Program-made: the position numbers and the translations under genes
Notes under the pieces: model-generated
What the model was told of the DNA's origin: nothing
Databases searched by the model: none
The model's input: the letters and a program-made list of their open reading frames with translations, nothing else
In this document: positions 8,581 through 63,791 of the stretch, in pieces
Position numbering within the stretch: the stretch's first letter is position 1
Layout: each line of letters starts with the position of its first letter
Origin: a phage
NCBI GenBank assembly: GCA_012747475.1
Contig: GCA_012747475.1_3928.1
Strand: one strand, 5' to 3'
Length of the DNA stretch: 64,000 nucleotides

Positions 8581-8605
8581 GACGGTCTCTGTGCCGTCTT
8601 TTTTA
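8581..8605 (+). terminator. rho-independent terminator
   Basis: GACGG-TCTCTGTG-CCGTC followed by TTTTTT. Confidence 0.55.
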
Positions 8606-8640
8606 AGGGGAAACATGGTTAACTATTTGGAGAAAACATA

Positions 8641-28135: not shown

Positions 28136-29311
28136 ATGGCAGTAGGTGAAATTCAAATTAGTGCCTTGCCACAAGCGGCCTTACCAATTGATTTGAGTGA
28201 TATCTTCCATCTTAAGCAAGGTGTTGAGGATAAAAGATGTACGCTTGAACAGTTGTTAGCACCTCACGCATCTTTGAGGAATAACCCTCATGGTGTAACG
28301 AAATCGCAAGTAGGTCTTGATAATGTTATTAACTCTCTTCAATTAGTTGCAGCTAATAACTTGTCAGACATTGTAAATGTTGCTGAGGCAAGAGCAAATC
28401 TACAAATTATGTCGTCAGAGGAAGTGAATAACTTAATTCAGCAACATATTGACGACAAAAGTAACCCACATAACACAACGAAAGCACAGGTCGGTTTAAG
28501 TAATGTTCAGAACTGGACAACATCTAATCTGTACAATGAAGATGCTGATAAGTACGCTACCGCGAAAGCAGTTAATAATTTATACAAAGCTATCCAAGCA
28601 TCATATCCAGTGGGGACTATTCATCTGTCTGTTAACTCTGCTAACCCATCCACTTACTTGCTTTGTGGAGGTACTTGGGAGTTAGTTTCTAAAGGTAGAG
28701 CACTAGTTGGTTATGATACAGATTCCAGACCTGTTGGTTCAACGTTTGGTTCTCAGACTGTAGCATTAACAAATAATAATTTACCAGCACATACTCACTC
28801 TATCTATCTAACAGGTGGTGGTCATACACACTCTGCAAGTGTATCTATCTCTAGTTTTGATTATGGTTCAAAAAGTACATCAACTTTTGATTACGGTACA
28901 AAAACGACTAATAGTGCTGGTGCTCACACTCACACGTTTAGTGGCACAACAAGTAATGCTGGTAACCACAACCATAGAGTTCCTATGAGGGGTAATGATA
29001 GGGGTGGCACAAACGCTATTACTGCATCTGCTGATGCTGGTGTTGGTAATGCTATGTATACTGATTTAGCTGGTGCTCACACCCATAGCTTCTCAGGTAC
29101 AACTGCATCATCTGGTGCTCATAGCCATACTGTCGCAATTGGTGCTCACAGCCACACTGTTAATATTGGTTCGCACAGTCATACAGGCACTGTTACTGTT
29201 TCTAGCTCTGAGCATACACACTCAGGGACATCTGGTTCTGTTGGTGGTGGTCAAGCTTTCAGTGTTGAGCAGCCATCTTTTGTAGTGTATGTGTGGCAGA
29301 GAACAGCTTAA
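28136..29311 (+). CDS. tail fiber protein with His-rich HxH repeat tip
   Basis: C-terminal AHTHS, GAHSHTV, GSHSHTG, SEHTHSG repeats and shared ending ...AFSV...WQRTA. Confidence 0.7.
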   Translation: MAVGEIQISALPQAALPIDLSDIFHLKQGVEDKRCTLEQLLAPHASLRNNPHGVTKSQVGLDNVINSLQLVAANNLSDIVNVAEARANLQIMSSEEVNNLIQQHIDDKSNPHNTTKAQVGLSNVQNWTTSNLYNEDADKYATAKAVNNLYKAIQASYPVGTIHLSVNSANPSTYLLCGGTWELVSKGRALVGYDTDSRPVGSTFGSQTVALTNNNLPAHTHSIYLTGGGHTHSASVSISSFDYGSKSTSTFDYGTKTTNSAGAHTHTFSGTTSNAGNHNHRVPMRGNDRGGTNAITASADAGVGNAMYTDLAGAHTHSFSGTTASSGAHSHTVAIGAHSHTVNIGSHSHTGTVTVSSSEHTHSGTSGSVGGGQAFSVEQPSFVVYVWQRTA

Positions 29312-29320
29312 TTTCTTTAC

Positions 29321-29341
29321 AGGGGCTTTATAGCCCCTTTT
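29321..29341 (+). terminator. rho-independent terminator
   Basis: AGGGGCT-TTAT-AGCCCCT followed by TTTT. Confidence 0.5.
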
Positions 29342-29357
29342 AAGAGGAAAATTCATA

Positions 29358-31913
29358 ATGGCAGATTACAAATTGAGTCAATTAAACTCAATCGACACAA
29401 TTCGTTCAGAAGACCTATTGCACATCAGAGTTAAGAAAAGACCTGAAATGTTGGGTGATGAAGACCGCAGAATGACCTATCAAGACTTCTTAGCTTCCTT
29501 CAAACTAGAAAGGTTTGTTCAGATTGCTGGAAGTAATATGACTGGGGATTTAGGTATTGTCAAGTTACTTTATGGTGGTAAGGCAGTATTTGACCCTACA
29601 GGTTCTTCTGAAATTACTATTGGGGATGTTTTAAAGACTTTTAAACTTAATGCAAATGGTCTTAAACTAACTATTGCAGATGCTTCAAGGTCAGCAACTG
29701 TTTATCATACTCTGAATAAGCCAAGTCCTAATGAGCTTGGTATGAGAACTAATGAAGAGAATGACGCAAGATATGCAAGACTTGCTATCACAAACACATT
29801 CTCTGGAACTCAAAATATTCAAGGTGATGCTAACTTACTTCGCCTTAGAAACCAAAATGCAAATAATGCACAATACATCGAAGGTGTAAACCTAGATGGT
29901 TCGGCTAGATGGTGGGTTGGTATTGGTAGTAATGGCTCTGATGAAGTAAAGCTGTACAATAACAAATACAACTCAGCCTTGACTGTTGCAAGTAATGTCT
30001 CTGTTAATAAGTCTTTAGCAATCACTGGTCAAGTTCAACCTTCAGATTTCTCTAACTTAGATGCTAGATACTTCACTCAGACAGTTGCTAATCAGAGATT
30101 TGCACAGTTAGCTGCTAATAATAATTTCACGGGCACTAACACGTTTAGTAGAAATCTAACCATCATTAGCGACAGTGCTGCTTTAAGGTTGAAAAATGCA
30201 ACAGCTAGCTCACTATTCATTCAGGGTGTTGACTCTCAGAACACTAACAGGTGGTATGTAGGGAACGGGGATAACACAGCCTCTGTGCTGCTACACAACT
30301 ATGTACACGGTTCAAATATCAGGCTTGATAATGGCTATATCTCAGTCAACCAGAACTTCAGAATCACTGGTCAAGTTCAACCTTCGGATTGGACTAATAT
30401 TGACTCTAGATATATTCCGGCAGCAACATTAAGTACGATTGCAAGAACTAATGCACAAAATACTTTTAATGGTGTACAGAAAGTTGTTACGGATAATGAA
30501 GCCCTAATTGTGAAAAACTCTACTCAGAACAGACCATTGTATATCCGTGGTGTGGACACTGCTAATGTGTCAAGGTGGTGGGTAGGTGTTGGTGGGGCAG
30601 ATAATAATGATGTAACCCTAAATAACAGTTATTCTGGAACCCAATTGGTTCTCGGGAATACAACATCATACATTAACAAAACATTGACTATTGCTGGACA
30701 AGTTCAACCTTCAGATTTCTCTAACTTAGATGCTAGATACTTTACGCAAAGTGCTAGTGATAGTAGATACCTAAGAATCAGAAGCACTAGCTTCAATGTG
30801 GGAAACACTGATAAGTGGGCTAAAATTGCCACTGTTGTGATGCCACAATCAGCATCCACTGCTGTTATTGAGGTATTTGGTGGGTCAGGTTTTAATATTA
30901 ATACACCAAACCAAGCAGGTAAATGTGAAATTGTTCTGCGAACTTCAAATAACAATCCAAAGGGCTTAAATGTTGTTGCTTGGAGAACATCAGAGAACAC
31001 CATTATCAGGGATATTGGTTATGTGAATACTTCTGGAGACACCTATGATATTTACTATCTTGCTGGTACGTATCAAAACAGCACAACGACAAGGGTTCAG
31101 TCTTCTAGTAATGCAAGTGTACAGTTGTTTGAAGTCCCACAGACATTTGATAATGCTCCACAAGGTATTGTGAAGGGTACAATTGCAAAATACTACACAA
31201 GTTTGCAAAAACCAACCCCTTCAGATATTGGTGCATACACTAAAGCAGAAACTGACCAGAAGATTGCAGAAGCAATTAGTGACTCTACAGACCTGAATAA
31301 AATCTATCCAGTAGGTATTGTGACGTGGTTTAACAGTAATGTCAACCCAAACACAGCACTTCCTGGGTTAACTTGGACGTACCTGAATAATGGTGTTGGT
31401 AGAACTATTAGAATTGCAGCAGCAAACGGTTCAGATGTTGCTACAACTGGTGGTTCAGACTCTGTAACGTTGTCTGTTGGTAACTTACCTTCACACACGC
31501 ACAGCTTCTCTGCTACTACTTCATCATTTGACTATGGTACTAAGACTTCTAGCACAACTGGTAACCACAACCACAACAGAGGTACTATGGAGATTACTGG
31601 TTCATTTGGTTACTTCAGAAGTGACGCTAGTAGCTTCTACACAGCAAGTGGTGCATTCTACCTCGGTAGTCAGGCAGGTTCTAAAGGGTATACTGGTAAC
31701 AACTTTACTAATGGTATCCCTGTCAACTTCAACGCATCAAGAAACTGGTCTGGTGTAACGAATACAACAGGTAACCACAGCCACACTGTTGGTATTGGTG
31801 CTCACAGCCACACAGTTAGTGGTAACACAGGTGGTACTGGTTCTGGTTCTGGTTCAGCATTTAGTGTTACTAACCAGTTCTATAAGTTAATGGCTTGGGT
31901 AAGAACTGCTTAA
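29358..31913 (+). CDS. long tail fiber protein with internal repeats and His-rich tip
   Basis: 851 aa; thrice-repeated ITGQVQPSDFSNLDARYFTQ unit; C-terminal SHTHSFS, GNHNHN, GNHSHTV, GAHSHTV motifs; ends WVRTA like the upstream fiber. Confidence 0.75.
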   Translation: MADYKLSQLNSIDTIRSEDLLHIRVKKRPEMLGDEDRRMTYQDFLASFKLERFVQIAGSNMTGDLGIVKLLYGGKAVFDPTGSSEITIGDVLKTFKLNANGLKLTIADASRSATVYHTLNKPSPNELGMRTNEENDARYARLAITNTFSGTQNIQGDANLLRLRNQNANNAQYIEGVNLDGSARWWVGIGSNGSDEVKLYNNKYNSALTVASNVSVNKSLAITGQVQPSDFSNLDARYFTQTVANQRFAQLAANNNFTGTNTFSRNLTIISDSAALRLKNATASSLFIQGVDSQNTNRWYVGNGDNTASVLLHNYVHGSNIRLDNGYISVNQNFRITGQVQPSDWTNIDSRYIPAATLSTIARTNAQNTFNGVQKVVTDNEALIVKNSTQNRPLYIRGVDTANVSRWWVGVGGADNNDVTLNNSYSGTQLVLGNTTSYINKTLTIAGQVQPSDFSNLDARYFTQSASDSRYLRIRSTSFNVGNTDKWAKIATVVMPQSASTAVIEVFGGSGFNINTPNQAGKCEIVLRTSNNNPKGLNVVAWRTSENTIIRDIGYVNTSGDTYDIYYLAGTYQNSTTTRVQSSSNASVQLFEVPQTFDNAPQGIVKGTIAKYYTSLQKPTPSDIGAYTKAETDQKIAEAISDSTDLNKIYPVGIVTWFNSNVNPNTALPGLTWTYLNNGVGRTIRIAAANGSDVATTGGSDSVTLSVGNLPSHTHSFSATTSSFDYGTKTSSTTGNHNHNRGTMEITGSFGYFRSDASSFYTASGAFYLGSQAGSKGYTGNNFTNGIPVNFNASRNWSGVTNTTGNHSHTVGIGAHSHTVSGNTGGTGSGSGSAFSVTNQFYKLMAWVRTA
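30021..30076 (+). repeat. intragenic direct repeat unit 1 in tail fiber gene
   Basis: 43-nt stretch CAAGTTCAACCTTCAGATTTCTCTAACTTAGATGCTAGATACT identical to 30699..30741. Confidence 0.6.
30364..30386 (+). repeat. intragenic direct repeat unit 2 (partial) in tail fiber gene
   Basis: ATCACTGGTCAAGTTCAACCTTC identical to 30021..30043. Confidence 0.5.
30690..30745 (+). repeat. intragenic direct repeat unit 3 in tail fiber gene
   Basis: Near-identical to unit 1. Confidence 0.6.
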
Positions 31914-36081: not shown

Positions 36082-36512
36082 AATGACCTCAAAGTTATAT
36101 TAAATTTTGTATTACATTGATTGTAAAAATAAGCTATAACACCTGACTTGTCAACAGATTTTATAGCTTATTTGGCAGATTTTTTATAAGGCTACTGCCA
36201 TCCTTCCATACCAGACCACACCATGCAAAACCAGACTTCACATCGCCTTGCTGTGCAATACATTACTTAAAAACCCTCTTAGAAGACTCTTAAGTGATGC
36301 TGGTGAGTACACGTTGGTTTATGCTGCTCAGTATACTCACCAAATTTTCTATGTCAACAACTTTATATAAAAGCCCTGATAGCTATATGTGTTACAAAAC
36401 AAAAGATTGTGAACAAAACACCCATTGCAAAGGATGTGTTCAAAAGTTTACTTGTGATGTAAGACAATATAAAGACAACTAATGCAAACAGAATGATTGT
36501 GCTTAACATATT

Positions 36513-37613
36513 TTACTCATAATCCCTAATAACTAGCCCGACAGGGAACTGTAAAGACCCCTTACGAGTCATCTTCTGGAACTGAACCGTTAAAGGTTTA
36601 CCGATAAATTCTTCAGGATGTTCAGCAAGATACTGTTTCTTCTCATGAGTAGTCTTCCATGAGACATCTACAAAGACGTTAGGAAGAGTCTCTACAACGA
36701 ACTTACCATGACCACGCTTATCAGTCTTGACACTAGTCACTTTAAACTCTTCAGTGTGCATCTTCTTATGTTTAATCAAGAAGTATGAACGGTGACAACA
36801 CTCATAGAAGGAGTCTTCAGAGATTGAACGGTACATTGCACCTTCAAACTTAGCTTCAACCCACTTATCATGAGCTTCATCAAACTCTTCCCAAGAGTTA
36901 ACACGGATAGTCTGTACAGGAACAACTCTACAGGTATCACCAAGCTCAATAATGGGTGAGTTATCAATAACTTCACGACGCTCAGGCCAAGTTTTTGAAT
37001 TGTCACAGATATCATACCAGTAGAATTTAAGAAGGTGACGGTCTGGATTGTCAGCATTCTTAATCATAGATACAATATCTTCTAAGTCCCATCCATGAGC
37101 ATAAATCTCACCATCAAAGTCTTCTACTTGTGGATGCAATTTAAGCAACAAAAGCAAATCTGGGATTAGTTCTTCTGGGACGTTGTAAATAGTATTCTCA
37201 CGAGAATAAGCCGTGAAACTAACTGAATCATCACCTCTTGAAATTCTACAACGGACACCATCAAGTTTTGGTTGAGCATCAGCAGGGAACTTCAGATACT
37301 TTGCATGGCTAACCTTTGCAGCATCATGAGCAAGCTGTACACCTACCTTCTCAGTATTCTGTGCAGACTCTTTTGTGTAAGCGTAACCTTTACGGTCTAC
37401 TTGTTTCTTATACTTAGCAGAAACTTCAAAGAGAGCTTGCTGTTCAGCGTTACGCTCATTCTTTTTACCGATGTTTTTAGGTTCTGCTGTATACTCTTCA
37501 AACATCATCTTGCCATTTTCTTTACCGTAGGTTGTAATAACTTTGTCACCTACAGCAACGCATGACCAGACGTTGAAGGAGCCATCTTTATTTTGTTTGT
37601 ACAGAATTGTCAT
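36513..37613 (-). CDS. ATP-dependent DNA ligase
   Basis: Motif I PKLDGVRC (KxDG), DGEIY, EGAMYR, HKKMHTEEFK; start set at ATG 37613 with AGAGGA SD rather than track start 37649. Confidence 0.8.
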   Translation of the reverse strand: MTILYKQNKDGSFNVWSCVAVGDKVITTYGKENGKMMFEEYTAEPKNIGKKNERNAEQQALFEVSAKYKKQVDRKGYAYTKESAQNTEKVGVQLAHDAAKVSHAKYLKFPADAQPKLDGVRCRISRGDDSVSFTAYSRENTIYNVPEELIPDLLLLLKLHPQVEDFDGEIYAHGWDLEDIVSMIKNADNPDRHLLKFYWYDICDNSKTWPERREVIDNSPIIELGDTCRVVPVQTIRVNSWEEFDEAHDKWVEAKFEGAMYRSISEDSFYECCHRSYFLIKHKKMHTEEFKVTSVKTDKRGHGKFVVETLPNVFVDVSWKTTHEKKQYLAEHPEEFIGKPLTVQFQKMTRKGSLQFPVGLVIRDYE

Positions 37614-37614
37614 T

Positions 37615-37806
37615 TTATTCCTCTGAGTGATACCAAGTGTTGCAAGCATTACATGCGTAAAGCTCTAAGTCATTTTTATCTGGTTTATGGAAACAGTTTG
37701 CTCCACAGTAGCAACGAAACGGCTTTCCACCAACTGTCAGGATGAAGGATTGAACCTTTCCATCAGGGGTCCGTACAGCATTTTTATGCTTATCTTCTTT
37801 GTTCAT
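37615..37806 (-). CDS. small zinc-ribbon protein, paralog A (63 aa)
   Basis: KNAVRTPDG...FRCYCGANCFHKPD...YACNAC; clear paralog of 38131..38334. Confidence 0.6.
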   Translation of the reverse strand: MNKEDKHKNAVRTPDGKVQSFILTVGGKPFRCYCGANCFHKPDKNDLELYACNACNTWYHSEE

Positions 37807-37885
37807 TTATCTCTTACCTCACAAGCTATGCAGCCTTTTGAGTAGAAGGAGTGCCAAGCATGTCCACCAAAGTCTTCTTTGGTAA

Positions 37886-38134
37886 TTAAATTGAATTTAT
37901 AGCTTCCATGTGTTTTTCGTAGAAATCTAAACATTTTTCATCTTGCTCCTTTATGTAACTATCATAAAATTCAGGTGATTCTGGTCTTTCACCAAAGGAA
38001 ATAACCTTTAGGTAGTACTTCTCATATGTGGAGCTGTCTAACCAAGAATCAAATAGTAATTTCTTAGTATTAGTCTTTGGAGGGATTACCAAGCTTTTCT
38101 CATACAATTCCTTCATCTCTTGAGTTATCTTCAT
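37886..38134 (-). CDS. hypothetical protein (82 aa)
   Basis: ORF track; ATGA overlap with upstream gene. Confidence 0.55.
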   Translation of the reverse strand: MKITQEMKELYEKSLVIPPKTNTKKLLFDSWLDSSTYEKYYLKVISFGERPESPEFYDSYIKEQDEKCLDFYEKHMEAINSI

Positions 38135-38334
38135 TGCATACCCTTAATCTTACCTAAGAACCTTACACCACAATTATTACACTCGTATATGTCTAAATTT
38201 GTGTTATCAGGTTTATGAAAACAGTTTGACCCACAACGACACCGGAATAGCTTACCATCAACACGAAGAATGAATGTTTCAAGCTCACCATCTTCTGTAA
38301 GAACTGCGTTCTTAAATTTATTACCTTTACCCAT
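38131..38334 (-). CDS. small zinc-ribbon protein, paralog B (67 aa)
   Basis: KNAVLTEDG...FRCRCGSNCFHKPD...YECNNC. Confidence 0.6.
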   Translation of the reverse strand: MGKGNKFKNAVLTEDGELETFILRVDGKLFRCRCGSNCFHKPDNTNLDIYECNNCGVRFLGKIKGMQ

Positions 38335-38494
38335 TTGTACTCTCGCCTGTGTCAGATTTCATATAAGACCTATCACTACGTCTTTTAATGAAATGTACAA
38401 CGCATTTCGGTGTATCTTTTGCATCTTTGATGTGCAACCTTTCGAAACTACGCACTGTGAAGGTTGCATCTGTCATTGTTTGTTTAGATTTCAT
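38327..38494 (-). CDS. hypothetical small protein (55 aa, not in ORF track)
   Basis: Hand-translated minus-strand ORF MKSKQTMTDATF...; ATG overlaps upstream stop (ATGA) and its stop overlaps the next start. Confidence 0.4.
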   Translation of the reverse strand: MKSKQTMTDATFTVRSFERLHIKDAKDTPKCVVHFIKRRSDRSYMKSDTGESTNG

Positions 38495-38697
38495 TTTCTC
38501 TTACCACTAATCTCTACGTCAATAACTTGAACATCACCAGCAACATCAAACTTATGAATGATACTTTCCACAGTGTAAGTCCAACCCTCGATGCGAACTA
38601 ACTCACCTTCTCGTGGGACTATTGGATTGCGTTGAGCTACAGTTGTAGTGGAGTGAACAACATCATAACGATAGATATAGTTTACTAATACTTCCAT
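38491..38697 (-). CDS. hypothetical protein
   Basis: ORF 38491..38796 trimmed to internal ATG at 38697 (GAGG SD) to avoid overlap with lipoprotein gene. Confidence 0.4.
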   Translation of the reverse strand: MEVLVNYIYRYDVVHSTTTVAQRNPIVPREGELVRIEGWTYTVESIIHKFDVAGDVQVIDVEISGKRK

Positions 38698-38707
38698 CGT
38701 AAAAACC

Positions 38708-38965
38708 TCACTCAATAACCGTGGTATGTGATTGACCATTTTTGCCATAGCTATAAGATGTTGTTGTTTGAGAGTTTGGGCATCTGACAACAACAATATC
38801 TCTGCTTATAGCATCACCATTGAGTTTGTAGATTTTGCAGTCTTGCATCTCTGGAGGGAGGCTGTAAGAAGCATCTTTGTTTTCATAAGATGGGTTGCAG
38901 CCAGCCAGAAAAATTACTCCAAGTGCAACCATTGCTTTCACACAACTCTTAACCTTATTGTTCAC
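38708..38965 (-). CDS. lipoprotein (signal peptide + lipobox)
   Basis: MNNKVKSCVKAMVALGVIFLAGC: signal peptide with lipobox cysteine. Confidence 0.6.
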   Translation of the reverse strand: MNNKVKSCVKAMVALGVIFLAGCNPSYENKDASYSLPPEMQDCKIYKLNGDAISRDIVVVRCPNSQTTTSYSYGKNGQSHTTVIE

Positions 38966-39097
38966 GATAGTCTACCTCTCTGTATGTTTTTAAATAGTGA
39001 GTGATGAGTTCTGGTAATTCACTACGTTTAACGTTTGAACGAAGAAGTGTCCAGTCAAAACCTTTACCAACCCTTCCCCAGAGACTGTACATCTTCT

Positions 39098-39331
39098 TCA
39101 TAGCAACTCCAGAATATCAATACGTTCACCTTTGAGTACTCCAGTACGGTCTCTTGCAATCTTACCGTCAACAATAAGGATGTGTGCAGACCTTAAAGAT
39201 TCACTATTAAAACCTTTTACGAACTTACTAGGCATCACTACAATAAGCATCTCCTGAATTAACTCTGGAGTATAGCAATTGTCGTGAAGTTGCTGAATAA
39301 CGTCTGCAAGTGTCATTTTTGATGTCTCCAA
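39098..39331 (-). CDS. hypothetical protein
   Basis: ORF track. Confidence 0.5.
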   Translation of the reverse strand: METSKMTLADVIQQLHDNCYTPELIQEMLIVVMPSKFVKGFNSESLRSAHILIVDGKIARDRTGVLKGERIDILELL

Positions 39332-39522
39332 TATTCAATATCAATAAGTTCTTGTGCAATGCTTTTCAGATTACCTTTCAAGAAAACCTTCTCAGAACCT
39401 GACAGAGAAGAATTGTCAATTAGCCTGTTCATTCTCTCAAACAACTTCTGCTTACGGCTCTTGATAGTTTCCTTCGAAGCACCTTTCATCATCGCTGCAT
39501 GGGTTCTTCCACGGTGGCTCAT
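39313..39522 (-). CDS. hypothetical protein
   Basis: ORF track. Confidence 0.5.
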   Translation of the reverse strand: MSHRGRTHAAMMKGASKETIKSRKQKLFERMNRLIDNSSLSGSEKVFLKGNLKSIAQELIDIEYWRHQK

Positions 39523-39583
39523 AAGTCCTCCTATACAAGATACAGTATAAGGTACTCTTCCATGAGCACCTTGTCAATACTAA

Positions 39584-47231: not shown

Positions 47232-48089
47232 ATGTCTAAAGTTGTTAAAATGAAAGCTCCGGTAGAGAAGTACAACGGTACTGAACGCCAAACTCTGCGT
47301 TACCTGCTGAAAGATGTCTGGTTTTATTACCTGAACACTTCACCACGTCCGGGAAAAGGTAAGTCTATTGATAAGAAATTCCCAGGCAAAGACTGCAACT
47401 ACAGCGTATCAATTCTGGCAGAAGACGGTAACAAACTGTTTAAAGAGTTTACTAAGTCTAAGAAAAATCCAGAAGGCTGGGATAAAGTCACGACTGAAGC
47501 AGTTGATGCAGACGACTTCGAAGAGAAGTTTGGTTGTAAACCACCTTTTGAAGCAGACACTTACTACATCTTGAAAGTAAGTCGTGCAGCAGCTTATAAA
47601 GATGGTGCTGTATGGACAGCTAAACAGTCATTCCCTGTAATGCTGATTGAAGAAGTAAATGGTAAGCGTGTAGCTGTTAAGCAGCCGATGAAGAAAATCA
47701 AAGCTCAAGCATCTGATAAACATGAAGATGACAAGAACTATGATGTAATTCATCCAGATATTGCAGTTGGTAACGGTTCTTTTGGTAGTGTGATTCTTTC
47801 TACTCACTTCTACACTTTTGAGAACAATGTTCTGACAAAACCTATTCAGGAACAGTTTATCATTGATACTCTTGTACCTTACACTGGTGGTAACGGTGCT
47901 AACGGTGAACCTGAACTGGATGAAGATGAATTGGCTATGCTTGGTCTTGATGGTGTTGAAGATAACGGTGAAATCACTGAAGAAGACGCAACAGACCACA
48001 AACCTTCGAACGATTCTGATGATGGCGATGATGAAGACTTGCCGGACCCAGATGACGAAGAAGATGAAGACTTCGATACAGAAGACTAA
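47232..48089 (+). CDS. single-stranded DNA-binding protein-like (acidic C-terminal tail)
   Basis: Acidic tail DDEDLPDPDDEEDEDFDTED as in T7 gp2.5-type SSBs; replication gene context. Confidence 0.5.
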   Translation: MSKVVKMKAPVEKYNGTERQTLRYLLKDVWFYYLNTSPRPGKGKSIDKKFPGKDCNYSVSILAEDGNKLFKEFTKSKKNPEGWDKVTTEAVDADDFEEKFGCKPPFEADTYYILKVSRAAAYKDGAVWTAKQSFPVMLIEEVNGKRVAVKQPMKKIKAQASDKHEDDKNYDVIHPDIAVGNGSFGSVILSTHFYTFENNVLTKPIQEQFIIDTLVPYTGGNGANGEPELDEDELAMLGLDGVEDNGEITEEDATDHKPSNDSDDGDDEDLPDPDDEEDEDFDTED

Positions 48090-48107
48090 TCTCTAAAAGT
48101 TACTTTA

Positions 48108-48136
48108 AAGCCCTGTACTTAGTATGGGGCTTTTTC
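48108..48136 (+). terminator. rho-independent terminator
   Basis: AAGCCC...GGGCTT stem followed by TTTTT. Confidence 0.45.
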
Positions 48137-48151
48137 ATATGGAGAGTCATA

Positions 48152-49192
48152 ATGGAGAAGTACACATTAACAAAGCTTCCCGATTCAGTTACACATGTCT
48201 TTATTGACTCTGATAGTATTGCCTATAAAGGTGCTTGTGTAGTTGAGAAAGCAAAATATAAATATGTCAATAAACTCACAGCAGAAGAATCTGAGCCATT
48301 TGATAATGCGAAAGATGCTGCAAGATGGTTAGCAGACCAGAGAATCCTTGTGGAAGAACTTGGACTGACATTTGATGAAGATGAATGGGAAAGACAGACT
48401 TGGAAAGAAGCTAAGAGTGAGAAAGAAGCTATCATGGCTACTCAACAGGTGCTTCAGGAATGGCTTAAGATTGTTGGTAAAGAAAGAACTTGGGTAGGTT
48501 ATTTAACAGAGAAGGGTGTGCATAAACATAAAGACATTAAAGGTCTTGAGCACCAATATCAAGGTAATCGTAAAGATGCTGTCACACCAACACACTTAGT
48601 CGCTTGTCGTGAATACCTTTTATCCAGACCAGAGTTCAAGCTCTTAAAGGGGGGCTTCGAAGCCGATTCAATCGTAATTGCTAAAGCTGAAAAGATGGGT
48701 AAGAAGGCTGCTCTTATGAGTATTGACAAAGACCTTCGACAAGCTGAAGGAACTTATTGTATTGATATGACTTATGAAAAATCACCACTAATCTTTATTG
48801 CTGATAATAATATTGGTGATATCTGGGATTGCCCTATCAAATCAAAACCAAAAGCTGCAAAAACAGTTGGTGTAGGTTTTAAATTCTTGTGCTATCAGGC
48901 TGTTGCTGGAGATAATGCAGACAACTACTTCGGACTTAAAGGTGCTGGTAAAGTGACTGTGATGAATGCTTTAGATGGTAAAGAGACCTACAAAGAGTGT
49001 CTTGATGCTATCTATGAACTCTATGCTAAAAAAGACTCTTACACCTATGTATCATGGGATGGACAGACAGTTACAAAGACACCGTTAGAGCTAATGGAAC
49101 AGCATTTCTGGATAGCTTATCAAGAAAGAAATCCAAAAGATAATTTCTCTTTTAAGAAATATAATTGGGAGCCGTGTATGAATGAAGATTAA
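48152..49192 (+). CDS. 5'-3' exonuclease / flap endonuclease-like protein
   Basis: N-terminal VFIDSDSIAYKGA resembles the FEN/5'-3' exonuclease LLVDGNSLAFRAFYA motif. Confidence 0.45.
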   Translation: MEKYTLTKLPDSVTHVFIDSDSIAYKGACVVEKAKYKYVNKLTAEESEPFDNAKDAARWLADQRILVEELGLTFDEDEWERQTWKEAKSEKEAIMATQQVLQEWLKIVGKERTWVGYLTEKGVHKHKDIKGLEHQYQGNRKDAVTPTHLVACREYLLSRPEFKLLKGGFEADSIVIAKAEKMGKKAALMSIDKDLRQAEGTYCIDMTYEKSPLIFIADNNIGDIWDCPIKSKPKAAKTVGVGFKFLCYQAVAGDNADNYFGLKGAGKVTVMNALDGKETYKECLDAIYELYAKKDSYTYVSWDGQTVTKTPLELMEQHFWIAYQERNPKDNFSFKKYNWEPCMNED

Positions 49193-49700: not shown

Positions 49701-49931
49701 ATGTTTAACAAAAGTAAAGCTGTGAGTCATGTAGCAAAGGTTGACAGCAAGATTGAAGAACTTGAGCGCATTCTTGCAAATGCCAGAGAGTCAATAATTA
49801 AAGAAGTTGAAGCTGTTGAATCTCAAATGCAGCACCTAATGCTTAAACGTCAAGAGTTACGTGAGCATCTGGAATATATTGAAACACGAGAGCTAAAAGT
49901 TAACAGATTTTTAAGGAGTCCGAATGTTTAA
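49701..49931 (+). CDS. hypothetical protein
   Basis: ORF 49686..49931 with ATG at 49701 preferred (GAGAGA SD). Confidence 0.5.
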   Translation: MFNKSKAVSHVAKVDSKIEELERILANARESIIKEVEAVESQMQHLMLKRQELREHLEYIETRELKVNRFLRSPNV

Positions 49932-50679
49932 CTCAAGAGAATCAGTAAAAAACTGGAATCTTCGTTGTGGAAACACCCAAAAGCAACCTTACAGCAATGA
50001 GTATTGGGAATCTTTGAAATCTCAATCTCTGTGTATGCTTGAGGAAGCAAAAGAGCTTGTAAAAGCAATTGAAGAGAAAGACCCCATTGAGACACTGGAT
50101 GCTCAGGCAGATTTGCAATATGTTCTTGATGGTTTTATTTACCTGTCACAACATGACCATAATGGTGCTATGGAAGCTGTTTGCCATAATAATGACCTGA
50201 AGTACACAGACGACTATGAAGAAGCTTTAAAACGTCTTGCAGATATTGAGAAGCGTACTGGTCAAGAGTGTATCATCAGAATGTCAGTAGTTGATGGTAA
50301 AGAATGGTATGCAATTGTTCGTGCAGCCGATGGGAAGATTATGAAGCAATCTAATCTCCCTAAAGTTCAGCTTGGTGAATACATTGTAGAACTTGAAAGC
50401 CAAGAACTTTTTGTGGTAGTCTCTGACACATGCGTTATCTGCAAAGGTATTGTATGTAGCTTAAAGGATTTGGGTGTAGATGGTTTTGTAGAAGTTAATC
50501 CAATTACCTCTAAAGCAGATAAAGATTTCTGTAAAGAGAATGGACTATGGATTGCAGATATTGTCTACTATGATGGTGAGCAGTTCCATGTAACCTCATA
50601 CCCGAAACTGAATTATGATGCTAATAACCTGAAGTGCTGGTTAAAAGGGGTTGGTTATAATGGATTCACAGAACATTAA
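49924..50679 (+). CDS. hypothetical protein
   Basis: ORF track. Confidence 0.55.
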   Translation: MFNSRESVKNWNLRCGNTQKQPYSNEYWESLKSQSLCMLEEAKELVKAIEEKDPIETLDAQADLQYVLDGFIYLSQHDHNGAMEAVCHNNDLKYTDDYEEALKRLADIEKRTGQECIIRMSVVDGKEWYAIVRAADGKIMKQSNLPKVQLGEYIVELESQELFVVVSDTCVICKGIVCSLKDLGVDGFVEVNPITSKADKDFCKENGLWIADIVYYDGEQFHVTSYPKLNYDANNLKCWLKGVGYNGFTEH

Positions 50680-55461: not shown

Positions 55462-57606
55462 ATGAACAAAGTACAGATTATTAAAAAGAATGGCTCACTC
55501 GAAGAACCTGATATCAAAAAAGTTTTATCAGCAGTCACAAAGTCAGCTAATAGGGTTGGGTATAAAGAACTCCCACCAGATGTTACTCAAGCTCTTGAGT
55601 CAGCATTTATGAGGATTTTGGTAAAGTCCACTAAGCAGAATAATTTGCTTATCTCGGTAAATGATATTCACAGTATTGTTGAGGGTGCTTTGGCAGAGGT
55701 CAATCACGAGATTTATGAGTCTTACTCAACATACAGAAATTACCGTAAAGAGGTTGCTCAAAATTGGGACGAACTCTACCAGAAGACTAAAGATACACTC
55801 TTCTTAGGTGACCGTGAAAATGCTAACTTTGACAGCAGTTTAATTTCTACGAAAGGTTCAATTATCCGTGGTTACCTGACTAAAGAAATCTTTAAACAGT
55901 ATCATCTAACACCAGAGGAACTTGAAGCCATTGAGAAAGGCTTTATCTATATCCACGATTTGAGAGACCTGATTTTTGGTGGTATTAACTGTTGCCTGTT
56001 TGACATTGGTAAAGTACTAAAAGGTGGCTTTGAAATGTCCGGCATTGAGTACTGTGAACCTAAATCTGTACTGTCAGCGTTGCAGGTTATTGGTGACGTA
56101 GTACTTTCAGCAACTGCACAGCAATTTGGTGGTTTTACTTTAGCAGAGATTGATAAGGTACTTGTACCGTATGCTAAGAAGTCTCTACGCTATCATGCTG
56201 AGAAAGCATCATCTTATGGTATTCCTAAAGAGCATTACCACAATTATGTAATGGAGCAGTTACAAATTGAACTGACTCAAGGTTTTCAGTCACTTGAGAT
56301 GAAACTAAATACCGTACCTTGTAGCCGTGGTGATTTTGCATTCACAACTTTAACATTTGGTTTACTTGACTCAGATATGTCTAATGAGGATAATCGACTA
56401 CAATACATGATTGCAAGTACTCTCCTAGATGTTCGTATGAATGGACAAGGCAAGAGTAAAAAACCTGTTGTATTCCCTAAACTGGTTTATATTTATGACC
56501 AGAAGAGACATGATGAGAATATCTGTCAAGGTCACCTGTACAGTAAAGCTATTGAGTGTTGCTCTAAAGCAATGTACCCAGATTTCTTAAGTGTGTCTGG
56601 TCATGGTGCTGTAGCAGAGGCTTTTGAGCGTTCTGGTAAGGTAATTTCACCGATGGGTTGCAGAGCCTTCTTATCTCCATATTTTAATGAGGATGGGGAA
56701 GAGTTTTACGTTGGTCGTGCTAACATTGGTGCTGTATCTTTGAACTTGCCAATGATTTACCAGTACTCTAAAGAGAATGGTTTAGATTTCTGGAAAGAGC
56801 TTGATAAGTACCTAGAGATGATTCGCAACTTCCACAAGAAACGCTACGAAATGATTGCTAATATGCCAGCAAGTTCTAACCCTCTTGCGTTCACACAAGG
56901 TGGTCTGTACAAAGGAACTAAGAAACCTACTGACAAGGTTGGTTGGGATATTGTGAAGTCCTTCACAGCTTCTTTTGGTGTTACTGCGCTTGATGAGTTG
57001 TCTGTTCTTGCTGAAGGTAAACGACTTCATGAAGTTGGAAGCTATAGTTTTGCATATGATGTTCTGGCATACATCAACATGAAAACCGAAGAGTTTAAAA
57101 ATGAAGATGGCTTCTTATATGCCGTCTATGGTACTCCAGCAGAATCACTATGTGGGACTCAGCTAAAACAGTTCAGAGATATGTTTGGGGTTATCAAAGG
57201 TGTTTCCGATAAGGAATACTTTACAAACAGTTTCCATATGAATGTTGCAGCAGACATCTCACCATTTGAGAAGCAGGACTTAGAAGAGTCATTCTTCCAT
57301 ATCTGTAGAGGCGGTAGAATCCAGTATGTAAGAGTAGCTAACCCAGAAAACTTATCAGCACTTAAAAGTTGTATTACAAGAGGGATGTTGAAAGGTTTCT
57401 ATCAGGGACTTAACTTTGACTTAGCAATCTGTGAGCATTGTGGTAACAGACCAAAATCAGATGTTGAAGAGTGTGAAGTTTGTCACTCACATGATATCTC
57501 TGTGATTAACAGAGTGTGTGGGTATCTTGGATGGACTAAGATTAAAGGTGAATCCCGAATGAACGATGCAAAAATCGCTGAGATTCGTGATAGAGTCTCT
57601 ATGTAA
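55462..57606 (+). CDS. nrdD: anaerobic ribonucleotide reductase (class III)
   Basis: Glycyl-radical motif NRVCGYLGW near C-terminus; zinc ribbon CEHCG...CEVCHSHD. Confidence 0.9.
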   Translation: MNKVQIIKKNGSLEEPDIKKVLSAVTKSANRVGYKELPPDVTQALESAFMRILVKSTKQNNLLISVNDIHSIVEGALAEVNHEIYESYSTYRNYRKEVAQNWDELYQKTKDTLFLGDRENANFDSSLISTKGSIIRGYLTKEIFKQYHLTPEELEAIEKGFIYIHDLRDLIFGGINCCLFDIGKVLKGGFEMSGIEYCEPKSVLSALQVIGDVVLSATAQQFGGFTLAEIDKVLVPYAKKSLRYHAEKASSYGIPKEHYHNYVMEQLQIELTQGFQSLEMKLNTVPCSRGDFAFTTLTFGLLDSDMSNEDNRLQYMIASTLLDVRMNGQGKSKKPVVFPKLVYIYDQKRHDENICQGHLYSKAIECCSKAMYPDFLSVSGHGAVAEAFERSGKVISPMGCRAFLSPYFNEDGEEFYVGRANIGAVSLNLPMIYQYSKENGLDFWKELDKYLEMIRNFHKKRYEMIANMPASSNPLAFTQGGLYKGTKKPTDKVGWDIVKSFTASFGVTALDELSVLAEGKRLHEVGSYSFAYDVLAYINMKTEEFKNEDGFLYAVYGTPAESLCGTQLKQFRDMFGVIKGVSDKEYFTNSFHMNVAADISPFEKQDLEESFFHICRGGRIQYVRVANPENLSALKSCITRGMLKGFYQGLNFDLAICEHCGNRPKSDVEECEVCHSHDISVINRVCGYLGWTKIKGESRMNDAKIAEIRDRVSM

Positions 57607-59245: not shown

Positions 59246-59512
59246 ATGGGAATTTTAGGTAATATGAAAGCTGGATTCTTGAAGGCACTGGCAAAAGCAG
59301 CAGCAATTGTTTCTATGACTGGAAAGCAGGTCGGTGTAGATGCTTCAGCGGTTGCACAGGTTCTTACAAGCCAAATTGAACAGCAGCCTTACATCTATGT
59401 AGGCCGTGGCAAAGGTGGTAAGAAACAAGCCCACCGTCCGTCTGGTGCAGCAGCTATTAAACGAGCAGCTAAGAAAGCTCGTAACCGTAAACGTAATAAG
59501 AAGGCTAAATAA
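59246..59512 (+). CDS. hypothetical protein (basic C-terminus)
   Basis: ORF track. Confidence 0.5.
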   Translation: MGILGNMKAGFLKALAKAAAIVSMTGKQVGVDASAVAQVLTSQIEQQPYIYVGRGKGGKKQAHRPSGAAAIKRAAKKARNRKRNKKAK

Positions 59513-59514
59513 TC

Positions 59515-59835
59515 ATGAGCAAAGTTTATAACACTCGTAAATTACAGATTTTCTTACTGTGCCAGTTTATGGCTAGAGAGCATAACTCCTACTATTGTGG
59601 TACAGGATTCATTAGTGATAATGATGGCTCATATCTCCCATTCAAAGAGGCTGTAAAACTCTTCAATGAAGAGAAAAGCTCTGAGAAAGATATTGAAAAG
59701 GTTAAATTAGCCTATAGTAAGAAAGATAAGAAGATTATCTGCCTAGATAACTTTGTGAAAGTTACCAAAGAAACTAAAGAGTTAATGGAAGAAAGTGAAA
59801 TTCCATTCACAAGAATCTTGAAAGTAGCTCAGTAA
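59515..59835 (+). CDS. hypothetical protein
   Basis: ORF track. Confidence 0.5.
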   Translation: MSKVYNTRKLQIFLLCQFMAREHNSYYCGTGFISDNDGSYLPFKEAVKLFNEEKSSEKDIEKVKLAYSKKDKKIICLDNFVKVTKETKELMEESEIPFTRILKVAQ

Positions 59836-59846
59836 GCAGATACTAT

Positions 59847-59877
59847 AAGGGAACTGTAAAGGTTCCCTTTTTATTTT
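59847..59877 (+). terminator. rho-independent terminator
   Basis: AAGGGAAC-TGTAAAG-GTTCCCTT followed by TTTTT. Confidence 0.6.
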
Positions 59878-59886
59878 GGAGATAAT

Positions 59887-60402
59887 ATGTATCTGTCAAA
59901 TCTGAAACGTTCTGCTGCAATGTCAGTGTTAAGACTCAGTTTTGAGGAACGTCAAGAGTTCATTGACTCTCACCAATACGACCCTTCCAACTCCAATTAC
60001 ATGATTCTCTGGAATCGTGAGAGTACTCGTGAAAGAGCATTATTTCGATATTACCCACACTATACCATAGACAACCTATATGAATGCTTTGTTGTGAAGA
60101 ACACCATTACAGTACTCAATAAACTTTGCAGATACACAGGCAGTCAATCCTTCACATTAGGTCACCACAAACCTGTTACAAAAGGTGGTGAACATCACTG
60201 TGCAAACTGGTTTATCCAGACTAAACTTGATAACCAGAAGCAAGGGGATAGTCTTTTAAGTACCCCTAAGATGACCTACGAAGAGCAAGAGAAATATATC
60301 AAAAATAATATGCCAGATGTGCTTGACAACAACTATACAGATTTGGCAATATCTCTCCTGTTGAAGTTCGAGACAGTTTATAGGGCAACTTACAATGGCT
60401 AA
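59887..60402 (+). CDS. HNH-like endonuclease domain protein (putative)
   Basis: GHHKPVTKGGEHHCANW motif suggestive of an HNH nuclease fold. Confidence 0.4.
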   Translation: MYLSNLKRSAAMSVLRLSFEERQEFIDSHQYDPSNSNYMILWNRESTRERALFRYYPHYTIDNLYECFVVKNTITVLNKLCRYTGSQSFTLGHHKPVTKGGEHHCANWFIQTKLDNQKQGDSLLSTPKMTYEEQEKYIKNNMPDVLDNNYTDLAISLLLKFETVYRATYNG

Positions 60403-60673
60403 AGAGAAGTGGGAGATTTTACCATTAGTTAGCGAAGGTGGTAATGGTTGTGAAATGTATATGATACGGGGTCATGTTCCAGAACCAATTGCACTTGAGA
60501 TGGTAAACAACTTTACAGATGGTTCTTACAAAGACTTAGGAGAACCAACTATAAAGCATCAATGGGTCAAGCCTGTACCAGACAGCACAGGTAACTGTAG
60601 TGTGCTTTATCACGTTGTAGACCCCGTGAAATGCAAATCTGCAATGGCAGTAACAAATGTAACTTTTGATTGA
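60395..60673 (+). CDS. hypothetical protein
   Basis: ORF track. Confidence 0.5.
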   Translation: MAKEKWEILPLVSEGGNGCEMYMIRGHVPEPIALEMVNNFTDGSYKDLGEPTIKHQWVKPVPDSTGNCSVLYHVVDPVKCKSAMAVTNVTFD

Positions 60674-61566
60674 GAGAGAAAACTATGAAAACATCTATCC
60701 GTGTTACAGTTCATTCACCAACTAAAGGTACTCATGAAGAAGAGTTTAACATCGTCCAATTCCCTTCTGGTGAGATTGGTGGACACTTTTCGCCAGAGTT
60801 TGTTGATTTTACTGCTTATGCAGCATCATCCATCAACAATGTGATTATGATTGTAAAAGGTTATGACAAGGACACATTGTTTGCTGTGGCACTTGCTAAA
60901 GAAGCAATTGATGATTTAATTCCTCATGATTATGCTTTAAAGACTGTCATCTTTTACTACCTACCGAATGCACGTTATGACCGTCACATGTTTAAAGGTG
61001 ACGCAGCAGCTTTAAAGGTTTTTGCTAAACAAATTAATGCAATGGGGTTTGGTGCAGTCTGTGCAGTTGACCCTCACAGCTATGTACCAGATAACCTGTT
61101 TAACTGCTTCCAGAGTATTCCTCAAAAGGAAATTGCAGTCCACTATGCAAATGACCCACTGATTGATTACTTAGTAGCCCCAGATGCAGGTGCTGCTAAG
61201 AAGATTGCAGAGACTGCTAAAGAGGTGGATAAACCATATATCACAATGTCTAAAGTACGCAACCTTAAGACTGGTGAAATTACTGGTATGCGAATCCTTG
61301 ATGATGTTGATTTGACAGATAAAACCGTCATGATTCTGGATGATATCTGTGATGGTGGTCGAACCTTCATAGAAGCAGCTAAACATCTTCGTGAAGCAGG
61401 TGCAAAACGTGTGGAACTCTATGTAACACACGGTATCTTCTCTAAAGATGTTGAAAACCTTCTTGACAATGGCATTGACCACATCTACACTACAAACTCT
61501 TTAGGGGAAGCTAAAGACCGTGGCTTAACACATTATGGTCAAGTTACTGTAGCAAACCTTGATTGA
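60670..61566 (+). CDS. ribose-phosphate pyrophosphokinase-like protein (PRPP synthetase or ADP-ribose pyrophosphokinase Adps)
   Basis: 298 aa PRPP-synthetase-like sequence (binding-loop-like ILDDICDGGRTF); immediately upstream of a NAMPT-like gene. Confidence 0.75.
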   Translation: MREKTMKTSIRVTVHSPTKGTHEEEFNIVQFPSGEIGGHFSPEFVDFTAYAASSINNVIMIVKGYDKDTLFAVALAKEAIDDLIPHDYALKTVIFYYLPNARYDRHMFKGDAAALKVFAKQINAMGFGAVCAVDPHSYVPDNLFNCFQSIPQKEIAVHYANDPLIDYLVAPDAGAAKKIAETAKEVDKPYITMSKVRNLKTGEITGMRILDDVDLTDKTVMILDDICDGGRTFIEAAKHLREAGAKRVELYVTHGIFSKDVENLLDNGIDHIYTTNSLGEAKDRGLTHYGQVTVANLD

Positions 61567-61575
61567 AACTTTATA

Positions 61576-61596
61576 GGGGCTTAAAAGCCCCATTTT
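61576..61596 (+). terminator. hairpin between the Prs-like and NAMPT-like genes
   Basis: GGGGC-TTAAAA-GCCCC followed by ATTTT. Confidence 0.45.
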
Positions 61597-61611
61597 GAGA
61601 GAGATTAAAAG

Positions 61612-63393
61612 ATGACTAAATCACTTTATGCAGTACCAGCAGGTTTAAACGCAGATGCTTACAAATCTGGTCATGTTTACCAGTACCCTAGTGCAACAGA
61701 GTACTTGATGTTCAACCTGACACCACGTAGTGACAAATGGTTTAACAGCCCCTTAGCAATTGATGGTGTAGTAGCTTTTGGTATTCAACGTTTCGTTAAA
61801 GATTACTTGATAGACCACTGGAACGCCACTTTCTTTGAACGTGATAAAAAAGAAGCCATTGATGAAATCTTAGAAGTCATGAATGGTGTTCTGGGTAAAG
61901 ATGCTATCGGTCGAGAGCATTGGGAAGCACTTCACGACTTAGGTTATCTACCAGTTGAAGTATACGCTGTAGAAGAAGGTACAGTTGTTCCTATGCGTGT
62001 ACCAATGATTGTCTTCCAGAACACTGTTTCAGGTTTCCATTGGGTAGCGGGATATCTGGAAGATGCTTTCTCTGCTGAGATTTGGAAGGCTTGTACCATT
62101 GCAACTATTGCATTGCATTATAAACGCATCTGTAAGAAGTGGGCTGACCTTACTTGCGACAATGACTTACATTTACCTTATCAGTGCCATGACTTTGCTA
62201 TGCGTGGTATGTCCGGCTTTACTGATGACGCATTTAACGCTGTAGGCCACTTAACCAGCTTTAAAGGGACTGATAGCTTCCCTGCTGTATATACAGCTAA
62301 ACGCATCTACGGACAGTCTTACCCAGTCTCTGATATTGGTGGTTCTGTACCAGCCACTGAACACTCTGTAATGTGTGCAAACATTGCTTGGGAAGGTGGT
62401 AATGAGTTGGTTGAAGAAGAAAGACGCTTTAAAGGTGAGTTACAAACCTTCCGTCGTTTCTTAACAGAAACTTACCCAACGGGTATTGCAAGTATTGTTT
62501 CAGATACTTATAACTTCTGGAGAACTGTGTCAGAAATCTTACCAGCACTCCGTAAAGAAATTATGGAACGTGACGGTAAACTGGTGATTCGTCCTGACTC
62601 TGGAGACCCTGTACATATTGTCACAGGTTATAAAGCAATCCACTTAGAGTGTGCTAAAAAGGCTTATTATGAGCACCTAAGCAAGCTGGAAGCCAGTGAC
62701 ACAATGCTGAATGCTGTTCTGAACATGAAGCTTGAAAACATCAGCTATGGTATCGCTGGATGGCTACTGTCAGAAGGCTACGAAATGGTTGTTGATAGAG
62801 AAGACTTTGAAGTTGCTGATACAGTGATGTTGAAGAACGCTTATATGGTTGGTTCTGCAAACGTTGTAACACGCCCTGTAGCAGAGATTGATGGAGCTAT
62901 TAAGACCTTGTATAACATCTTTGGAGGAACTATCAACTCTAAAGGTTTTAAGGTACTGGATGAGCACATTGGACTTATCTATGGTGACTCTATCACGTTG
63001 GAACGTGCAAACGAAATCCTGAAGCGTCTGTATGAAATGGGTTTTGCAAGCTCTAACGTAGTGTTTGGTGTAGGCTCTTACACTTACCAGTACATGACTC
63101 GTGACACCTTTGCATTTGCTGTCAAAGCAACTCTTGCAAGCATTGGTGGTAAAGAGATTATGCTTGCAAAAGACCCTAAAACAGATAGTGGTGTTAAGAA
63201 GTCTGCTTTTGGTGGTGTAGCACCTATGTGGGATGGTGATAAGCTGAAAGCTGTAGATGGACTCGGAATCCAGAGTTTTGCAGATGCACTTGACCATCCA
63301 GCTTGTGCTTTACGTTTAGTCTTTAGCAACTCTGAGCAGTTCGGTTACACATCTCTTGGTGATATTCGAAATAATATTGACAAGCAGCTTTAA
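61612..63393 (+). CDS. nicotinamide phosphoribosyltransferase-like protein (NAMPT or nicotinamide ADP-ribose transferase Namat)
   Basis: 593-aa NAMPT-family-like protein; paired with Prs-like gene. Confidence 0.75.
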   Translation: MTKSLYAVPAGLNADAYKSGHVYQYPSATEYLMFNLTPRSDKWFNSPLAIDGVVAFGIQRFVKDYLIDHWNATFFERDKKEAIDEILEVMNGVLGKDAIGREHWEALHDLGYLPVEVYAVEEGTVVPMRVPMIVFQNTVSGFHWVAGYLEDAFSAEIWKACTIATIALHYKRICKKWADLTCDNDLHLPYQCHDFAMRGMSGFTDDAFNAVGHLTSFKGTDSFPAVYTAKRIYGQSYPVSDIGGSVPATEHSVMCANIAWEGGNELVEEERRFKGELQTFRRFLTETYPTGIASIVSDTYNFWRTVSEILPALRKEIMERDGKLVIRPDSGDPVHIVTGYKAIHLECAKKAYYEHLSKLEASDTMLNAVLNMKLENISYGIAGWLLSEGYEMVVDREDFEVADTVMLKNAYMVGSANVVTRPVAEIDGAIKTLYNIFGGTINSKGFKVLDEHIGLIYGDSITLERANEILKRLYEMGFASSNVVFGVGSYTYQYMTRDTFAFAVKATLASIGGKEIMLAKDPKTDSGVKKSAFGGVAPMWDGDKLKAVDGLGIQSFADALDHPACALRLVFSNSEQFGYTSLGDIRNNIDKQL

Positions 63394-63407
63394 AAGTATA
63401 TGATAAG

Positions 63408-63430
63408 AGGCTCCTACGGGAGCCTTTTTA
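63408..63430 (+). terminator. rho-independent terminator
   Basis: AGGCTCC-TACG-GGAGCCT followed by TTTTT. Confidence 0.6.
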
Positions 63431-63443
63431 ATTTCTGGAGAAG

Positions 63444-63791
63444 ATGATGGATAACCTTTCTATATGGTTTAACAAGAAACCTGTGCAACCGAAATACTTA
63501 CAAGTTGCCTATACAGACATCCTTGAAGTTCTCGGTAAAGAAAAGTTTGAAAAGTTTTGTGAAGGTATCTACAATCACCACTGCCAATTTGCTACAAAAG
63601 AAGGTATGTTTATCATAGAACAGTTCTTTGGCAGAGACCCAGATGACTACGAAGAGATTAGCTTTGTAATGAAATACATGATAGAGTATATTGAAAATCG
63701 TGGATTCGAAGTTAATCCTGAATTTTATGAACATGAGGGTGTACCTTTAGCAAAAGGTTTCGATGGCATACTCATTAACTGGACTTGGTGA
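63444..63791 (+). CDS. hypothetical protein
   Basis: ORF track. Confidence 0.5.
   Translation: MMDNLSIWFNKKPVQPKYLQVAYTDILEVLGKEKFEKFCEGIYNHHCQFATKEGMFIIEQFFGRDPDDYEEISFVMKYMIEYIENRGFEVNPEFYEHEGVPLAKGFDGILINWTW

Follow-up and report, generated by a model that had tools for sequence, protein, structure and literature searches.

NARP1, by which phages rebuild NAD+ from the debris of SIR2-, TIR- and DSR-type defenses, is an important recent discovery. It was defined by genetics and metabolomics from genes 79 and 80 of Escherichia phage JohannRWettstein (Bas63) (Osterman et al., bioRxiv 10.1101/2024.02.11.579819). Deletion of these genes lowered the plaque count on SIR2-HerA ~20-fold and aggravated the loss of NAD+, pyrophosphorylated ADP-ribose (ADPR-PP, m/z 720.010) appeared in Bas63-infected cells only with both the operon and the defense, and the anti-defense effect was independent of host pncC and nadR (Osterman et al.). 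In the homologous system of Bacillus phage SPbetaL1, Adps (ADP-ribose pyrophosphokinase) converts ADP-ribose (ADPR) and ATP to ADPR-PP, with no Prs-type product, and Namat (nicotinamide ADP-ribose transferase) converts ADPR-PP and nicotinamide to NAD+ (Osterman et al.). Here we analyzed a window of 64,000 nt of phage DNA (assembly GCA_012747475.1, contig GCA_012747475.1_3928.1), in which a Prs-like gene lies directly upstream of a NAMPT-like gene (60670-63393). Because both genes are orthologous to Bas63 genes 79 and 80, on which the pathway was defined, we identify the pair as the known NARP1; judging from its sequence, it very probably functions as such, forming the core adps-namat operon of a Felixounavirus. 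A host NADase defense (SIR2-HerA/Nezha, DSR, type I Thoeris or similar) would cleave NAD+ to ADPR and nicotinamide, Adps would pyrophosphorylate ADPR with ATP to yield ADPR-PP, and Namat would couple ADPR-PP and nicotinamide directly to NAD+, without a nicotinamide mononucleotide (NMN) step or an NMNAT.

Related systems share parts of this architecture. NARP1-AP (Adps-Adpp-Namat, Vibrio phage Gary) and the RyDEP-extended NARP1 of phage DyoEdafos contain the same Adps and Namat core but have a Macro- or RyR-domain gene in or beside the operon, while there is none in the window operon. NARP2 of Vibrio phage KVP40, consisting of the Nampt NadV and the bifunctional Nmnat NatV, also counters NAD+ depletion with a NAMPT-family enzyme, but it uses phosphoribosyl pyrophosphate (PRPP) via NMN and needs an Nmnat gene, whereas the window encodes an Adps partner and a Namat with clamp motifs. 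Cellular Prs (E. coli b1207) and NAMPT/NadV (human NAMPT; H. ducreyi NadV, PDB 9ke8) have the same folds and catalytic chemistry as the two window proteins, namely pyrophosphoryl transfer from ATP and a phosphoribosyl-type transfer to nicotinamide.

The window is collinear with Bas63 (MZ501086.1) at ~94-96% nucleotide identity and is circularly permuted with respect to it, window 7-8640 corresponding to Bas63 78860-87100 and window 8641-64000 to Bas63 1-56061. A megablast search with the locus returned 254-258 phage records, nearly all of them Felixounavirus (FelixO1-like myoviruses of Escherichia, Salmonella, Shigella and Citrobacter), with SP22, wV8 and JLBYU32 as the closest matches (97-98% identical). 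The window is from a Felixounavirus, the genus in which NARP1 was discovered. We found no literature naming this genus jointly with NARP1; the connection came through the Bas63 accession. The locus shares with that of Bas63 (bas63_0079-0080) its position after nrdD, nrdG and five small open reading frames (ORFs), the gene order, the 45-nt spacer and an intergenic hairpin. The original prediction, made without database searches, had placed a Prs-like and a NAMPT-like ORF here and had proposed NARP1, a pathway in which a Prs homolog pyrophosphorylates ADPR and a NAMPT homolog joins the product to nicotinamide. The ORFs are real genes, matched by Pfam and PHROG models and conserved as a pair in 254 phage records, and the proposal was apt, these being orthologs of the genes in question. 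What does not hold is the status of ‘candidate’: the finding is correct but already known, a re-identification of NARP1 in its type lineage. The window thus provides no new system, the genus being the same and the genes nearly the same as in the type case.

The adps gene (60685-61566, +), assigned by orthology, Pfam and PHROG, encodes a Prs-family protein of 293 aa starting from an ATG. Its ORF matches Pfam Pribosyltran (1.3e-11) and Pribosyl_synth (4.8e-10) as well as phrog_619, annotated as ‘ribose-phosphate pyrophosphokinase’ (4e-97). The mechanical ORF (60670-61566, +) begins at a TTG and encodes the 298 aa given in the original prediction; the ORF stands as described, but its start is probably wrong by five codons. 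We rejected the TTG at 60670 and consider Adps most likely to be 293 rather than 298 aa long, since this TTG shares nucleotides with the upstream ORF's stop codon, the Bas63 and wV8 orthologs start at the ATG equivalent to 60685, and a Shine-Dalgarno-like GAGAGAGA (60672-60679, +; read from the sequence) lies 5 nt upstream of this ATG, the right spacing for it. The same GAGAGAGA motif also precedes the namat ATG (61597-61604).

The window Adps is identical to wV8 Adps (EU877232_00148) at 291 of 293 positions and to the product of Bas63 gene 79 at 229 of 293 (78%). In the NARP1 paper, the phage Adps clade stands apart from cellular Prs (Fig. 3C and Sup. Table 1), Bas63 Adps served as one of the clade queries, 97% of the clade have a Namat homolog within 10 genes, and wV8 Adps is entered in Sup. 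Table 1 as ‘Namat within 10 genes: Yes’ (Osterman et al.). In the window, namat is the gene directly downstream of adps. Identity to SPbetaL1 Adps, which has a shorter N-terminal region (272 aa), amounts to 36% (100 bits), compared with 29% (62 bits) to E. coli Prs. The window protein falls below all NCBIfam Prs equivalog cutoffs (best 104 bits against a cutoff of 296), as does SPbetaL1 Adps (106 bits). For comparison, E. coli Prs reaches 533 bits on NF002320. The window protein narrowly passes only the broad subfamily model TIGR01251 (122.6 versus 113). By the equivalog thresholds the protein is therefore no canonical Prs, and its place in the Adps clade follows from the identity to wV8 and Bas63, the bit scores and the failed Prs cutoffs, that is, from pairwise comparisons and model scores and not from a tree.

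The protein nevertheless belongs to the Prs fold family, with the catalytic lysine of the flexible loop and the ATP-binding motifs in place. Residues F26/G29/E30, R97/D99/R100, H131 and D219-D220 (the FxxGE, RxDR, His and DD motifs) are invariant among the window Adps, E. coli Prs and three other Adps. The catalytic-loop lysine K190 (codon 61252-61254, +), within SKVRNLKTGEI, aligns with K162 of SPbetaL1 Adps, for which K162A was designed as an active-site mutant because the residue corresponds to Lys197, which is essential in B. subtilis Prs (Osterman et al.). Around this lysine, the four aligned Adps have the pattern K-x-RN-x-x-TGEI in common, a pattern observed in this analysis and not a published criterion, where E. 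coli Prs has KRRPRANVS.

The namat gene (61612-63393, +), assigned by orthology, Pfam, PHROG and fold, encodes a NAMPT-family protein of 593 aa. The ORF matches Pfam NAPRTase (7.9e-35), NAMPT_N (2.4e-5, at the cutoff) and phrog_448 (3e-202). Its product aligns without gaps to that of Bas63 gene 80, which has the same length, with 582 of 593 residues identical (98%). The gene lies on the same strand as adps, which ends at 61566, and the pairing recurs in two distant relatives of the long form, Arno162 and SB18, as well as in a metagenomic contig; the Namats of wV8 and HY02 are entered as ‘Adps-associated’ in Sup. Table 2 (Osterman et al.). The closest PDB sequence match is SPbetaL1 Namat (9w5w/9w5x, 1e-128), the identity of 9w5w being confirmed by 100% tblastn identity. 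An AlphaFold2 model of the window Namat (pLDDT 93.6, pTM 0.91) has the SPbetaL1 Namat crystal structures as its top fold match (E 3e-54, TM 0.95 on target), above H. ducreyi NadV and mammalian NAMPT. The SPbetaL1 system (Adps WIT26982, Namat WIT26983; PMC12774641) thus resembles the window pair in pathway architecture, catalytic core, clamp helix motif, catalytic-loop lysine and fold, but its Namat is only ~38-46% identical and 491 aa long.

Namat shares with Nampt the residues that bind NMN and the catalytic histidine that is phosphorylated, and it adds to this catalytic core an adenine ‘selectivity clamp’ composed of a helix motif (SCH) and a variable loop (SCL) (PMC12774641). We mapped the residues of the window Namat by HMMER alignment and a 33-sequence alignment. 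H251 (codon 62362-62364, +), in the motif ATEHSVM, is presumably the phosphorylated catalytic histidine of the family (human NAMPT His247) and aligns with the catalytic histidine of SPbetaL1 Namat. Likewise, D15, Y17, F195, R198, D221 and A248 align with SPbetaL1 D13, Y15, F189, R192, D215 and A242, and R327, D329 and G458-D459 with R306, D308 and G360-D361. All of these core residues, including H251, are invariant in the 33 homologs.

The clamp is present as well. The published SCH consensus is GSX-phi-X-phi-X-phi-TRD with aromatics at positions 3 and 7 (PMC12774641); the window sequence GSYTYQYMTRD (residues 488-498; 63073-63105, +) fits it, aligns with SPbetaL1 G390-D400 and has Y490 and Y494 as the aromatics, the third phi being Met where Asn or Val is usual. 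Human NAMPT, ~24% identical to the window Namat by structural alignment, lacks this aromatic motif. In the SCL, the third residue is Arg, Lys or Tyr, and with Lys at this position the next residue stacks on the adenine, Bas63 being the example given (PMC12774641). The window loop, PRSDK42W43, has this Bas63-type arrangement (K42-W43 codons 61735-61740, +), with K42 aligned to SPbetaL1 R40, which itself stacks on the adenine. In the comparison of NAMPT against Namat proposed in the original prediction, all published Namat determinants are thus present.

The NAMPT-like protein had also been predicted to be longer than typical members of the family, and this is borne out: the extra length consists of two internal insertions, with no terminal extension. 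Both are present in Bas63 Namat and absent from SPbetaL1 Namat. Insertion A (residues ~258-275; 62383-62436, +) varies in length in the Ounavirinae-type clade and is also absent from homologs of ~495 aa. Insertion B (residues ~340-427; 62629-62892, +) forms a compact alpha/beta subdomain of ~85 residues after the RPDSGDP strand, which is confidently predicted, has no fold relative and is conserved down to 46% identity. Other Namats contain an unrelated insertion at the same site. Insertion B might serve a separate purpose, for instance to dock Adps so that the labile ADPR-PP is channeled, to control the enzyme or to escape an inhibitor from the host.

Orthology, gene order and the conserved published catalytic and selectivity residues are direct observations, while the same function for this phage's own proteins, notably for its Adps N-terminal allele, is what we infer from them. 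Several points weigh against the assignment to NARP1. Two Namat contact residues differ from SPbetaL1, both conservatively (S190 to A196, A362 to S460). The Bas63 protein did not purify, and the enzymology of the NARP1 paper was performed on the SPbetaL1 homologs (Osterman et al.). In vitro evidence that Namat prefers ADPR-PP and forms NAD+ directly is limited to the enzymes of SPbetaL1, DyoEdafos and P. foliorum, the evidence for the 98% identical Bas63 Namat being in vivo genetics and metabolites. Namat also retains in vitro PRPP-to-NMN activity, about half that of human NAMPT (PMC12774641), and some production of NMN is therefore possible. Our Pfam scan for NMNAT, Nudix, Macro and RyR domains covered 18 window ORFs (8 neighboring and 10 larger unannotated ones) and not every small ORF, and ~23 kb of the genome lie outside the window. 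Finally, the N-terminal ~150 residues of the window Adps are assigned to another allele class than those of the genetically tested Bas63 Adps.

The PRPP-to-NMN activity is one of the arguments for an ordinary NAD+ salvage or NARP2-like route, in which PRPP from the Prs-like enzyme is turned into NMN by the NAMPT-like enzyme and NAD+ is completed by an NMNAT of the host or the phage (NadR, NadD, or via PncC). Such a route would also agree with the database names, as Pfam, PHROG and NCBIfam all label the proteins Prs and NAMPT/NAPRT and the window Namat passes the NF006629 equivalog cutoff. These names carry no weight, however, because SPbetaL1 Namat, whose function has been established by experiment, also passes this equivalog, ‘nicotinate phosphoribosyltransferase’; NCBIfam contains no dedicated Adps or Namat model, and only its generic Prs and NAPRT models match. 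The window Adps fails the Prs cutoffs, and the window Namat has the adenine-clamp motifs by which Namat is told apart from Nampt. In addition, Bas63 counters the defense without need of host pncC or nadR, and no Prs-type product is formed by SPbetaL1 Adps. An NMNAT gene, of which the original prediction had seen none in the window, was not found here either: the scan of the 18 ORFs gave no NMNAT (CTP_transf_like), Nudix, Macro or RyR domain, and no NMNAT is annotated in the complete, collinear Bas63 genome. With an Adps present and no Nmnat domain in these ORFs, the locus also differs from NARP2. We consider ordinary salvage very improbable, and NARP1 is retained. Public records, PHROGs, Pfam and NCBIfam still label these genes Prs and NAMPT/NAPRT, which gives the assignment its value for annotation; since the generic models mislabel NARP1 genes, signatures are needed, for which GSX-phi-X-phi-X-phi-TRD (Namat) and the K-x-RN-x-x-TGEI loop (Adps) are available.

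The divergent part of adps is a sharply bounded allelic block comprising its N-terminal ~150 codons (5' ~450 nt; 60693-61142, +), with 57-81% nucleotide identity to Bas63 between flanks of ~94%; the C-terminal half of the protein is ~97% identical between the two phages. Over the 254 records the block is bimodal: 141 have at least 90% identity to the window (the wV8-type, to which the window belongs), 98 have 60-80% (the FelixO1/Bas63-type) and 15 have 80-90%. The Adps of FelixO1 itself has a chimeric look, with a Bas63-type N-terminus and a window-type middle, as judged by eye from the sequence in Sup. Table 1. The low identity, the sharp edges and the coexistence of both classes in the genus would fit a functional divergence of the wV8-type allele from that of Bas63, affecting perhaps its substrate range, its regulation or its response to a host factor, so that the pair would be NARP1-like but not equivalent. 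Against this, the catalytic motifs are intact in both classes, including the family-invariant ATP and catalytic motifs in or beside the block; the wV8-type is the majority form and always adjoins a highly conserved namat; the authors of the NARP1 paper listed it without distinction; and mosaic blocks arising by recombination are commonplace in Felixounavirus. A functional difference of this kind thus appears extremely improbable. What doubt is left about NARP1 function is due to this allele, which differs from the tested one, and to the enzymology coming from homologs outside Felixounavirus. The two deep allele classes could reflect host counter-selection.

The two-enzyme minimum may not be the entire system in all cases. 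In the window operon there is no Macro-type Adpp or RyR glycosidase gene, and the ORFs flanking it (59246-60673 and 63444-63791) gave no Macro or RyR hits with Pfam, unlike the NARP1-AP and RyDEP loci. Bas63 gene 95 (bas63_0095; MZ501086 63278-64063), a ‘putative phosphatase’ of 261 aa located outside the window and ~7.8 kb downstream of NARP1, contains a Macro domain. Its N-terminal ~155 residues align with the entire validated Adpp (ADPR-1''-P phosphatase) of Vibrio phage Gary (27% identity, E 1e-13), and its full-length form is found in 258 phage records, a number similar to that of records with the NARP1 locus. It is not among the operon-linked Macro genes listed in the aRES paper. The protein could be a dispersed NARP1-AP component that also defeats aRES, with the caveat that Macro domains have many activities. 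Because of Namat insertion B, the deep Adps allele classes and this genus-conserved, unlinked Adpp-like protein, there is some chance, though a small one, that Felixounavirus NARP1 is more than the published two-enzyme minimum. The uncharacterized insertion subdomain, the bimodal alleles and the distal Macro gene are modest leads.

The adps and namat genes are separated by a gap of 45 nt, which contains a hairpin (GGGGCU-UAAA-AGCCCC followed by AUUUUG; 61576-61597, +). Folding of 61555-61625 gave a minimum free energy of -15.1 kcal/mol (z = -2.6), and Bas63 has the same stem and a single substitution in the loop. A role as terminator was rejected, as the T-run is too short for the consensus terminator scan to call it; at best, the hairpin may terminate leakily or stabilize the RNA. 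In relatives, the same intergenic spot carries an HNH homing-endonuclease gene. Twelve nucleotides past the namat stop codon, the consensus scan found a terminator-like stem-loop with a T-rich tail (63405-63436, +; hairpin 63405-63428), consisting of a 10-bp stem with 5 GC pairs and then TAATTTCT.

A further terminator-like site was found by the consensus scan at 59847-59869, just upstream of ORF171 (59887-60402, +; 171 aa, phrog_3500, weakly HNH-like). ORF171 is followed by ORF92 (ending at 60673, +; 92 aa, phrog_4726), which abuts adps; their orthologs are bas63_0077 and bas63_0078. ORF171 and ORF92 overlap at 60395-60402, and ORF92 and the TTG-started adps ORF at 60670-60673. The hairpins at 59847-59869 and 63405-63428 bracket the four tightly packed, co-oriented genes ORF171, ORF92, adps and namat, which, by this arrangement, probably constitute one transcription unit. 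The HNH-like signature of ORF171 is weak (HHKPVTKGGEHHCANW...; phrog_2214 3e-4, DUF7167 0.003).

Elsewhere in the window, identity to Bas63 is lowest at 29113-31562 and 36260-39577 (72-88% with gaps), which correspond to tail fiber genes and to small early genes around the DNA ligase. Such regions are the usual host-range and mosaic hot spots. The nrdD gene (55462-57606) is uninterrupted in the window and encodes 714 aa, whereas Bas63 nrdD is annotated as a two-piece join with an intron containing a homing-endonuclease gene (bas63_0068); ~740 bp of Bas63 (47827-48569) are absent, with the gap at window position 56659. An ORF of 251 aa (49924-50679) contains a MazG/PRA-PH-type pyrophosphohydrolase domain (Pfam PF01503, 2.6e-5) and adds a further gene of nucleotide metabolism, without evident connection to NARP1. 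Finally, Felixounavirus sequence is present in two ‘Campylobacter phage’ records (e.g., A132; MG065664.1 is among such records) and in one ‘Staphylococcus’ record. Phage A132 is 95.8% identical to the window across the adps block, and these records are probably mislabeled or contaminated.

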